This document shows, one piece after another, positions 23,573 through 45,154 of a DNA stretch of 64,000 bases. Origin of the DNA: Eledone cirrhosa. Taxonomy: Eukaryota. Numbering within the stretch: the first letter of the stretch is position 1; each line of letters opens with the position of its first letter. The stretch is taken from assembly GCA_964016885.1 (NCBI GenBank), contig OZ024740.1, positions 263,748,001 to 263,812,000 on the forward strand, read 5' to 3'. The position numbers and the translations under genes are program-made. A model generated the notes under the pieces. That model did no database searches. It was given only the letters and a program-made list of their open reading frames with translations, and was not told the origin of the DNA.

Positions 23573-23997
23573 ATAAAATATCAAAAAAATAATGAATAAA
23601 ACAATGAAACAGTTCCTTATATTAAACAAAAAAAGTTCATTATTTAACGATCGTTTCTAGGATATATATGTGTTAGAATTGGCATGCATATTCAACAGAT
23701 CTATGTACAAAAATATACAAAATTATACAAACTATCAAGATTAAATATACATACCAAACACACATATATGCCGTCTTCAGAAATAATCCTTTCAGACGGC
23801 ATATATGTGTGTTTGGTATGTATATTTAATCTTGATAGTTTGTATAATTTTGTATATTTTTGTACATAGATCTGTTGAATATGCATGCCAATTCTAACAC
23901 ATATATATCCTAGAAACGATCGTTAAATAATGAACTTTTTTTGTTTAATATAAGGAACTGTTTCATTGTTTTATTCATTATTTTTTTAATATTTTAT
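23573..23997. repeat. Near-perfect fold-back palindrome (~204-bp arms, 17-nt spacer); the right arm continues as unique sequence to TA at ~24131
   Basis: Arms 23573-23776 and 23794-23997; mirror ORFs in the ORF track confirm the symmetry. Confidence 0.95.
23639..23787 (-). ncRNA. Type I hammerhead ribozyme with an extended stem II
   Basis: ATTATTT CTGAAGA [116 nt containing an ATATATGTGT/ACACATATAT helix near its base] GAAAC GATC GTT AAATAAT: 7-bp stem I, palindromic stem III. Confidence 0.7.
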
Positions 23998-25537
23998 CTT
24001 GACTCTGTATTCCGTTTATCTTTCACCGAAAGTGATTTTTCATTGCATCTCTTCTTTCCATGATATCCGGAATACATTGAGTTCTTCATACGGATTGGAC
24101 ACTACCGTAAACTCTTGGTAGATTTATCTACATATATATATATATATATATATTTAATACAAAAACAGAGATAGTTTAAAGCTAAACTCTGACTGGTAAC
24201 CATTTCACTCAACAAACATTAGGTTATATTAAAATGTAAACCCAATTTAAGTGTTTGGGGTGCTAACAATATGTATAATGTGGAAAAACCAGTTGTATTA
24301 TTTTATGAGATATAATTAAAGTTAAAGTATATCTCTCTTTCCAAACAATTGTTTCATTATAAGTTTTCTACAAGTTTGGGAGAATGTTTCCAGTTTATGT
24401 AGAAGCCTAATATATATTCATGTAAGAATATATTTAGGTGGGCACTTATAAATCATCAGTGGAAGCCCATTAAACATTGATATAAGAAAACAATTTCTTA
24501 CCGCTATCAAATCATGTCCTTAAAGTTGCTCTCTCTCACCTCGAATGACCGCCAAATTTGAAATTCCAGCAGTTTTTGACTGAGGAAGTATCATAGCGAC
24601 ACGAAGCGGGAAGAGGAGACAACCCACGATCCACGAAATGAGGAAAAAAATAATAATATACACGCGGGTTAATTAGTTTTTTTGAAAACATTATCAATCC
24701 AACGTGTTTAAGAATTCAATTGAAAATAAAAAAATAAATATATGCTTGTATAAATTACACACGCATATAGATATTTTCTTAGGCTAAATCAGAAGTTGTA
24801 CCCGATGTATGCAAAAATCAAGAATCAAACGGAAACAACAATGCAAATAAAACAGTACAAAGAAGAAATGTATTATTTTGACGTTTGAAATTAGTAGGAA
24901 AAAAGTCTTTAAATTATGTATAGTACTACTTCACCAGGAGATTGGATGGGAAATAAAAGATGAAATAGAAAGAAGGGGAAGGAACGGAAAAAAAGAAACT
25001 TGAGTAAAACCACGTGAGTATTCAGTGGCCATTCTGACACTCGGGTTTCGCGGGCTTAACTGGAATAAGGCAGCCGTCATATTTATTTATTTCAAACCCC
25101 AAGCATATATTTCATGTTACATTAGTTAAACTAACTTAGCCAAAGGCATGACATGCACTAGTAATTACTCGGCTGAAATGTTTTGAACAATATACTTCCA
25201 AATGGTTTTCGTTCAATATTTTTGACGGAACGTTAGCGTTGCTTCGACTTGATGAAATTCACAAAATGTAAGGAGACTAATTTGAAAGGGAGAAACATGA
25301 AATCATAAATACTCACATACATCTTTCTTTGTGTATGTGCATGCAGACACACACACGCACACACACACGCGCGTATCTATCTATCTATCTACTTCTCTAC
25401 CTCTCTCTCCATCTATCTATCTCTCTCTCTCTCCCTCTCTCTCTCTCTCTCTCTATATATATATATATATATATATATATATATATATATATATATATAT
25501 ATATATAATTGGTAACACATCAGTTAGTTCAACATAC

Positions 25538-25576
25538 CGAGAAACAATTGTTTCACCTTACCGGATCCTCAGCTCG
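25538..25576 (-). ncRNA. Minimal type I hammerhead-like motif
   Basis: CGAG CTGAGGA T-CC-ggtaa-GG-T GAAAC AATT GTT t CTCG; one extra T before stem I. Confidence 0.65.
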
Positions 25577-25762
25577 CAATGGTCATGGTTATACGTCCCA
25601 TGAACTGAGTGGTCTGCCATTACGGTTATTACCTTCCGGTGTTCTAGCTCTCTCTCTCTGTATCTCCCCCTCTCTCTCTCTCTCTCTCTCTCTCTATATA
25701 TATATATATATATATATATATATATATATATATTATATATATATACATGTATATATATATAT

Positions 25763-25878
25763 ATAGGAACGAGTAGGACCCCGACAGCTGAGCTCAAGCC
25801 GTTTCGACTGCTAATTCAGGCCAGAATTAGCCGTCGAAACGGCTTGAGCTCAGCCGTCGGGGTCCTACTCGTTCCTAT
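25763..25878. repeat. Fold-back palindrome (55-bp arms) containing the 3' half of a hammerhead
   Basis: Apex 25818-25823; right arm reads GCCGTC GAAAC GGC ttgagctca GCC GTC GGGG. Confidence 0.85.
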
Positions 25879-43471: not shown

Positions 43472-43953
43472 ATCTCATCTAAGGCAGGTAAAATTCCCGA
43501 GATCCATGGACGAGTTCTCTCCAGCGGTCTCTGTCCCTCATTATCGCTGCCATGTCCTGCGTCTCCAACAGACTGGTGTCTGTCATTAGGGCATCAACAT
43601 ACGTTAACCTTGGTCTTCCTCTTCTAGTGTGTCCATGTTTTGGTGACAAATACAGTGAAGGAGGCAGAGGATTTGATGCTGGAGGTTGAGACTGTGTCGA
43701 TGAGTGTGGGGCTGAGAATGAATGAGACTAAAACAAAATATCTGGTAGAGAATGTTGAGAAGCCAGAGGGGATCACTAATGTAGGCGAGAAGCCGCTAGA
43801 ATTGGTTGAGGGCTTCCTGTATTTGGGAGCAAAGATTGGGAATACGGAATATGATATGGTTGAGAGGAAGAGCAAGGCCTGGGCGGCGTGCCACAGCTTG
43901 AGATCGGTGTGGAAGTCGGACCTTCGTAGAGACCTAAAAGTCCGCCTCTTCAT
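43472..43953. mobile_element. RTE-clade LINE fragment with 5' inversion
   Basis: Minus 43626-43480 encodes RRGRPRLTYVDAL..MRDRDRWREL (RTE C-terminus); plus 43640-43953 encodes GLRMNETKTKY..FLYLG..DLKVRLF. Confidence 0.85.
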
Positions 43954-44315
43954 ATGTATATATACATGTATATATACATATATATCAAACTACTGATGAT
44001 GGACAGTCCCGTTTCTCGGTCTATTTTCCATTTATATGTATCACACTCGCAACAACGCTGCACACCATTTTTTCGTTCACATATATTTGTTCCCCTTGCT
44101 GTGGTTCGTATTTTGTCTATCACCTTACTGCTATCCTCTTTCTCTCTCCCCCTTCTCTCTGCTTGTACCTCTTGCTTTCTTTCACCCCCTCTGCTGGTCA
44201 TTTGGCCTCATGTTGCGAGATTGGGAACAATTGTGCATATTAATTTCATGGAAGTGAATATATATATATTTTATATATATATTTATATATATATAAAATA
44301 TATATATATTCACTT

Positions 44316-44593
44316 CCATATAAAAAATCAATTAGACCAAGCTATAAGAAGAAAGGCTTTTATGAAGAAATCTCCGACAAATAACCGACAGTGGCCTCTT
44401 CGCGGTGGCCCCAATAGAGTACTTATCCAACATTTCGACAGCATGTAGAAACTGACTAAATGTTTAGTCAGTTTCTACATGCTGTCGAAATGTATTGGGG
44501 CCACCGCGAAGAGGCCACTGTCGGTTATTTGTCGGAGATTTCTTCATAAAAGCCTTTCTTCTTATAGCTTGGTCTAATTGATTTTTTATATGG
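44316..44593. repeat. Fold-back palindrome (~131-bp arms, 2-nt loop, 14-nt indel in the left arm)
   Basis: Apex 44461-44462; extra GAGTACTTATCCAA at 44417-44430. Confidence 0.95.
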
Positions 44594-44786
44594 TTAATTA
44601 TGCTAATTGGAAGAGGAATTAGTATATATTTTATCTAATAATTCTAAGGACATGGTTTATGATATATTGCTCTGATTATTTAATTTATTAATTCTTCATA
44701 GAGCTTAAAAGTGACCGGTTGCAACATATATATCTATAACTGTATGTATATGTAAACCTTTATATTTATATATATATATATATATA

Positions 44787-45154
44787 TTAGAAAGTGAGGG
44801 TTTTTTTACAAATTGAAAAATAACCGAGGTGTCCTAAACGAGTGAAAGTATAAAGAAAAAGAGATGAAATCGAAAATGCAACTGGAGTCTTATTTTTTTT
44901 TAAATATATATATTTATTTGGTTCCTTTACCGGTTTCGCAGTTCTTCTGCTTTTCAAAAGTAGAGTTGAGATGGAGGGTCTGTGGTTTTTCTCACAAGTT
45001 CAGATGTGAGAAAAACCACAGACCCTCCATCTCAACTCTACTTTTGAAAAGCAGAAGAACTACGAAACCGGTAAAGGAACCAAATAAATCTATATATTTA
45101 AAAAAAAAACTAAGACTCCAGTTGCATTTTCGATTTCATCTCTTTTTCTTTATA
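44787..45154. mobile_element. Family F element with fold-back palindrome (~150-bp arms, 8-nt loop)
   Basis: Arms 44849-44996 and 45005-45154; TA tracts on both sides. Confidence 0.9.
44923..44964 (-). ncRNA. Type I hammerhead ribozyme, U3-A8 core variant
   Basis: CTT TTGAAAA GCAG-aagaa-CTGC GAAA CCGG TA AAG; the mirror copy at 45037-45078 (+) has one stem II mismatch. Confidence 0.7.

Follow-up and report, generated by a model that had tools for sequence, protein, structure and literature searches.

This analysis concerns a 64,000-nt stretch of the Eledone cirrhosa genome (GenBank assembly GCA_964016885.1, contig OZ024740.1, positions 263,748,001 to 263,812,000, forward strand), referred to below as the window, and in particular a group of fold-back palindromes lying in (TA)n between positions 23573 and 45154. 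Judged from sequence comparison, the palindromes are probably (at a probability of about 0.7) short leader insertions of Penelope-like elements (PLEs) in (TA)n, in which the apex marks the capped 5′ end of the element RNA and double-primed run-off cDNAs have been joined. In most families the turning point is likely to be the predicted RNA start and not the hammerhead ribozyme, to which an earlier note on this DNA had assigned it. The inverted pseudo-long terminal repeat (pLTR) with a tail is already known from PLEs; the addition would be an apex at the predicted capped start, with an extra G.

All four palindromes of the earlier note were present when the window sequence was checked, as was the weaker fifth (given there as 42981-43087 and located at 42982-43083), which belongs to family F9. 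The P1 arms (23573-23776 and 23794-23997) are 204 nt each with 1 mismatch, and the P2 arms (25766-25817 and 25824-25875) have 2 mismatches. The P3 arms occupy 44316-44461 and 44463-44593, with ~14 nt missing from one of them, and the P4 arms ~44849-44996 and 45001-45152. These palindromes are far above the chance expectation. Each has a tail on one arm only, which ends in TA, as had been described.

The window palindromes are stubs in (TA)n, each derived from a PLE family of high copy number. A first look at the 3.0-Gb genome, with its seemingly octopus-like repeat content, gave 536, 1261, 1704 and 1548 family candidates for P1, P2, P3 and P4, respectively, which are not copy numbers. Sibling copies share a common layout of inner 5′ end, hammerhead, site B, a 55–130-nt tail and site A, where A and B are the two outer ends that are fixed in each family, 55–130 nt apart and joined to TA. 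TA follows site A on the long arm in 67/69 P2, 56/56 P4 and 33/35 P1 copies, and follows site B on the short arm in 76/78 P2, 20/22 P1 and 19/24 P4 copies. Eighty evenly spaced 10-kb genome samples (800 kb) contained 84 tight palindromes, 45 of them with (TA)n on one side only. These one-sided palindromes amount to 7927 nt, i.e. ~1% of the sampled DNA at about 1 per 18 kb, and the route that produces them would therefore be an important source of hairpins in this genome.

The PLE origin of the palindromes is supported by the parent copies. P1 parents (L033 and L039) and a P2 parent (L030) continue through site A into a reverse transcriptase (RT) open reading frame (ORF) with YRDD; the P1 and P2 ORFs contain RWR, DKT and YRDD motifs and were assigned by these motifs and by tblastn. 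P4 is preceded by thumb and GIY-YIG fragments at L264, L097 and L113. The pLTR is thus contiguous with RT ORFs in P1 and P2, and with thumb/GIY-YIG fragments in P4. Within the window, a P4-related element encodes a C-terminal GIY-YIG nuclease (PF01541, E 3.3e-6), and the RT part of a broken PLE ORF (28012..29748) shares 55% and 48% identity with the ORFs that lie downstream of the P1 and P2 parents, respectively. With their inverted, 5′-truncated pLTR and one-sided tail, the palindromes are the known 'inverted pLTR plus tail' type of PLE insertion.

The inner 5′ ends were mapped on parent copies, using copies sampled by tail only together with random DNA and flanks. They pile up sharply in seven families, at +7, -45, +42, +6, +122, +69 and +5 nt from the hammerhead core. 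Among apex-unbiased copies, ends within -2 to +8 of the predicted A account for 60/118 in P2, 16/44 in P4, 22/41 in F5, 7/15 in F8, 6/15 in F13 and 7/39 in F9. These sharp, family-specific pile-ups support the claim that apex positions are non-random. In 7/7 families the pile-up falls on an A within YC-A or TT-AGT, an initiator-like context found at 4% of positions, and a TATA-like box lies at about -30 in P4 and F5. By sequence, an RNA polymerase II start (initiator or TATA context plus an extra G) is indicated, except in P3. Among the window copies, the short arm of P1 terminates at +1, followed by GG, the P2 long arm starts at +1, and the P4 arms start at -1 and +3. Two further accumulations in F9 (-211 and -47), like the P1 ends found from +60 to +191, are probably artefacts of the reference or of subfamily structure. 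The P2 pile-up lies within hammerhead loop II, so that an RNA starting there would lack half of the ribozyme. A splice acceptor at this place was considered and rejected, since the ends precede AG and the upstream joins vary.

A non-parental G precedes the A at 12 of 20 otherwise unexplained junctions at +1, as compared with 16 of 97 at other ends (p=1.4e-4). In a test fixed beforehand, genome-wide TA-N-(+1) junctions were counted by hand, the first 30 per family being checked, and among the matches listed a non-parental G was found in 113/237 against a background of 13% (P4, 37/100 listed of 170; F5, 62/100 listed of 112; P1, 14/37). The parent base before +1 is C in 23/25 P4, 8/9 F5 and 15/15 P1 copies. 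An extra G is the capping mark at full-length L1 insertions (PMC11702581), and PLE promoters and start sites are located in the pLTR (PMC2377424; PMC8557442). The extra G before the A is likely the trace of a copied cap, and the GG in the P1 apex spacer likely a cap copy plus untemplated bases. At L354 and L380, around 1450-1510, short pieces of the P1 5′ end recur in a stack ahead of the insertion, each with a G in front, and probably reflect more than one jump back to the capped end. Literature searches gave no report of PLE inverted junctions located at a capped start; subscription papers and supplements may hold it.

The order of the arms bears on whether one cDNA or two were made. Of 107 long-short pairs, 33 have a short arm that extends further 5′ by 3 nt or more, 34 have a long arm that does so, and in 40 the two ends lie within 2 nt; the corresponding numbers in the unbiased subset are 24, 22 and 21. 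Fifteen pairs combine a short arm at the start site with a later-starting long arm. As only the long arm could supply the loop, the frequent further-5′ position of the short arm excludes simple snap-back; the snap-back of the cDNA proposed in the earlier note also leaves the fixed, TA-joined site B unexplained. Many apex joins have 0–3 nt of microhomology. At L110 and L112, P2 and P4 arms are joined with no TA run between them, which suggests that two different RNAs are occasionally used in a single event.

A number of observations weigh against a capped start copied by two cDNAs. P1, P2, F8, F13 and F9 have no TATA box, and P3 shows no pile-up. The start sites were first chosen from the same pile-ups and are predicted from DNA junctions, and the P2 site was shifted by 4 nt after the Gs had been seen; without P2, the in-sample G test gives 6/9 vs 12/40 (p=0.06). 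G is the majority base only in F5, the parent C being as common in P4 (39 vs 37, among the matches listed), and G stands at that place in 2/25 P4 read-through copies. The P1 end distribution comes from a sample chosen for covering +11 onward and is not apex-unbiased; searches with the P1 tail only gave no match, and the P1-like copies met in random DNA had diverged too far for mapping. Subfamily variants are shared between the two arms of a palindrome (P2, 0.038 vs 0.076 shuffled), as snap-back would also give; both arms thus probably derive from a single RNA or a single source element. Joins between families number 4/306, one of them clearly head-to-head, and are too few to show two RNA templates.

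The proposed mechanism would begin with the GIY-YIG nuclease of the element nicking both strands of (TA)n. Each nicked 3′ end would then prime reverse transcription at one of two fixed internal sites, and both cDNAs would run off at or near the cap, given that the priming sites are only 60–340 nt from the transcription start. The cDNA ends would be joined head-to-head through 0–3 nt of microhomology or with a small number of untemplated bases between them. Because the cDNAs pass through the hammerhead cut site, the RNA copied would be uncleaved; the ribozyme would be a bystander. In the tandem family P3 both priming sites are shared and the inner ends are scattered. For PLE integration as a whole, we give even odds to double priming on one capped, uncleaved RNA by a dimeric RT-nuclease that acts on both strands, starts at two leader sites and copies to the cap. 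If so, the ~10^5 stub palindromes of the genome would form a fossil record of PLE start sites, exact to the single base. The origin of the PLE inverted repeats has been named an open question (PMC8557442), and double priming would answer how inverted pLTRs arise. An apex at the capped start, two independent run-off cDNAs and no role for the ribozyme would make this answer specific and testable in an existing in vitro system. Double priming would also explain the great excess of short stubs over full elements.

The alternative that fares best, still improbable, is that one cDNA reaches the cap and snaps back to copy itself, that the nuclease cuts the resulting hairpin at site B, and that later apex deletions blur the order of the arms. 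The concordance of the arms and the microhomology at many apices are consistent with it, and the tail has earlier been ascribed to nuclease resolution (PMC8557442); however, it is opposed by the 15 pairs with the short arm at +1 and a later long arm, including the window P1 with GG on its short arm, by L316 and the F9 copy at L251, in each of which both arms have a G ahead of +1, and by the two RT start sites that bound the tail in vitro (PMC11167929). Somewhat less probable again is a pile-up at an uncapped, for example processed, RNA 5′ end, with the G arising as a terminal-transferase C at any run-off. Such an end would suit the five families without TATA and start sites that are predicted from DNA, but not the initiator-like context in 7/7 families, the TATA at about -30 in two of them, or the location of PLE promoters and start sites in the pLTR (PMC2377424; PMC8557442).

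For the ribozyme, hammerheads were assessed on parent copies by sequence and pairing, self-cleavage being predicted. Complete type I motifs, canonical or U3-A8, are present in the pLTRs of the P1, P4, F5, F8 and F13 parents. That of P1 has a 10-bp stem I, CTGAAGA, a palindromic stem III and a stem II of ~115 nt. In P2 the 3′ half was confirmed and the 5′ core varies among parents, with U3-A8 in some; P4 has a U3-A8 core 42 nt from the apex. The earlier description of apices at or just 5′ of a hammerhead therefore stands for P1, for P4 and for the 3′ half in P2; it was not confirmed for P3. The P3 family has a clear hammerhead, read by eye (CTGATGA, stem II ATCC/GGAT, GAAA-CCATGG-TA), which is missing from the window copy; its cut site lies 73 nt upstream of the apex. 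The motif previously named at 44461 (GTC-GAAATG..TATT-GGGG) has no nearby core and pairs only with the family core 165 nt upstream, via a 2-bp stem II; it is distinct from the family's clear ribozyme. The fifth case is a palindrome as noted, with a non-canonical CAGAAGA core. Among the best 150 of 248 Rfam matches there was no hammerhead; they were chance matches to hairpins resembling microRNAs and did not reach the gathering score. In the P1, F5 and F9 parents, stem I starts at or adjoins the predicted +1, and cleavage would release a capped RNA of ~45–140 nt.

A stall of RT at the hammerhead followed by snap-back, with ribozyme structure setting the apex, is very unlikely. Pile-ups lie at most 7 nt from the core in P1, F5 and F9 and in loop II in P2, 5/44 P4 ends fall at +68 to +80, around the cut site (+72), and the variants shared between arms are also compatible with a stall. 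In the three families whose pile-up is 42–122 nt from the hammerhead (P4, F8 and F13), 29 ends fall in the 33 nt of the pile-up, 10 in 147 nt of ribozyme and 22 in 305 nt elsewhere; end density in the ribozyme is not enriched over elsewhere (p=1.0). Repetition on new flanks gave 7 ends in 33 nt at the start site, 1 in 147 nt and 8 in 305 nt. The P3 ends are scattered, with 6/46 inside the ribozyme vs 7.3 expected (46 of 71 pieces were used, read-through ends and ends past +335 being dropped). Offsets from the core vary by family, from -45 to +122 nt, so neither a stall at the ribozyme nor a dictate of its structure over palindrome position is supported, and a stall would leave the extra G, the fixed site B and the further-5′ short arms unexplained. 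Apices lie near hammerheads because the ribozyme lies within about the first 170 nt of the leader.

Head-to-head repeats would likewise arise by self-priming on an antisense transcript, a route that has been put forward for the Penelope palindromes of rotifers (Arkhipova et al. 2013; PMC3846280); it predicts neither sense-strand initiator ends nor a G 5′ of the sense +1 and is equally unlikely. A fold-back artefact of assembly or amplification, which would account for the lack of any read or contig shown across the full length of a window palindrome, is scarcely credible given family-fixed ends at many loci, point mutations that distinguish the arms, and raw restriction site-associated DNA reads of other individuals with apex-crossing family sequence (33 start places at 25820, one run) and site B-TA junctions (421, 448 and 353 reads for P1; 2217 and 1854 for P2). 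These junctions show that the structure is not an assembly artefact, although no read spans a window locus from end to end. A pile of read ends at 25825 was not used, being confounded by the window copy's own substitution.

The palindromes resemble the inverted-pLTR insertions of endonuclease-containing (EN+) PLEs (PMC3846280; PMC8557442) in their head-to-head 5′-truncated copies, one-arm tail, (TA)n target and pLTR hammerhead, and differ in tail length (55–130 nt vs 30–40). In the accessible parts of those papers the repeats are ascribed to self-priming or left open, the inner ends are not placed at the start and no extra G is reported. With Poseidon of the green anole (PMC11167929) they would share extension of both strands, two internal RT starts, a dispensable ribozyme and a predicted dimer: in vitro, both target strands are cut and then extended from a pair of internal positions on either side of the tail, and mutating the ribozyme leaves insertion unchanged. 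The Poseidon tail lies inside the ORF, whereas that of P1 and P2 is upstream of the ORF start, and inverted repeats, caps and start sites are not treated in the accessible text. As in L1 twin priming (PMC11702581), the second target end would prime internally, inverted pieces would be end-joined and full-length 5′ junctions carry an extra G. L1 pieces, however, abut with 1–10 nt of overlap, whereas here both cDNAs cover the same 50–215 nt and both priming sites are fixed. Insertion would work like twin priming, but without the L1 pattern of non-overlapping inverted pieces with a target-site duplication, since the arms overlap over their full length and duplications are unreadable in (TA)n.

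The P1 and P2 parent ORFs may fit the description of the Hydra clade (PMC8557442) by DKT, the (TA)n target and canonical hammerheads, the CxCX5C linker being found in the related window ORF only; they have RWR in place of RWK, and the P4-related ORF has a different, Cys-containing GIY-YIG. Palindromic stem III, the U3-A8 core and opposite-strand pairs 100–700 bp apart are shared with minimal type I PLE hammerheads (PMC4209133), from which the ~115-nt stem II of P1 and the predicted P2 start inside loop II differ. The 670-nt tandem unit of P3 carries one type I hammerhead, as in non-LTR retrozymes (10.64898/2026.07.22.740005). The coordinates of the window features are collected in Table 1.

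Table 1. PLE-derived features of the window (positions within the 64,000-nt stretch).
Feature	Position	Strand	Description
P1 short arm	23573..23787	-	predicted +1 A (23787) to site B, then (TA)n; complete type I hammerhead 23787 to 23636
P1 apex spacer	23788..23793		two bases adjoining +1 are GG in short-arm sense; parent base C
P1 long arm	23794..24127	+	+11 via site B (23997), ~130-nt tail to site A, then (TA)n
P2 short arm	25766..25817	-	+6 to site B, then (TA)n
P2 long arm	25818..25955	+	from predicted +1 A (25818); contains the hammerhead 3′ half and site B (25875), followed by an 80-nt tail as far as site A; one substitution at 25820
P4 second insertion	41570..41782		P4 family; inverted arm reaching +6 joined to long arm starting +138
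F9 (fifth case)	42982..43169		short arm 43053 to 42982 (-), long arm from 43056 (+); same layout, apex rearranged
P3 short arm	44316..44461	-	core+140 to +285; without hammerhead; stops before the family's usual site B (+359)
P3 long arm	44463..44769	+	core+141 to site A (+460); family with 670-nt tandem unit
P4 long arm	44788..44996	-	from +3; U3-A8 hammerhead with core from 44957 and cleavage site at ~44928; tail of 64 nt as far as site A
P4 short arm	45001..45152	+	-1 to site B, then (TA)n
Broken PLE ORF	28012..29748	+	YRDD and CxCX5C linker
P4-related PLE fragment	49510..53036	-	GIY-YIG ORF (50808-51272; PF01541 E 3.3e-6) flanked by inverted repeats of 462 bp

In the tails of P1, P2, P3, F5, F8, F13 and other families, an (A/G)CTC...GAG(T/C) pair recurs 5–12 nt past site B. 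In folding predictions the pair forms a stem in P1, P2, P3 and F5, and not in P4, F8 or F13; it is a candidate RT-binding element. Directly before the P3 short arm (44247-44318), ~11 nt of flank are inverted and duplicated around a TA run, which looks like hairpin fill-in of a target end before priming.

Hammerhead-type PLE stubs of other families are present at 42346-42600 (minus strand; core at 42453) and 41430-41545, and further palindromes, unassigned to a family, at 4338-4629, 21556-21596 and 62121-62216. The segment 8818-14381 looks like an intact non-LTR element, with long open frames of 702 and 1204 aa; AP nuclease, RT and zf-RVT domains are encoded in the latter. Overlapping fragments of RT-bearing non-LTR elements occupy 33486-35369, 36609-38018, 5993-8542 and 15057-20622. 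A repeat of ~185 nt resembling a short interspersed element is found in three copies (43179-43364, 31992-32164 and 62230-62415), one of which directly follows the long arm of the fifth palindrome.

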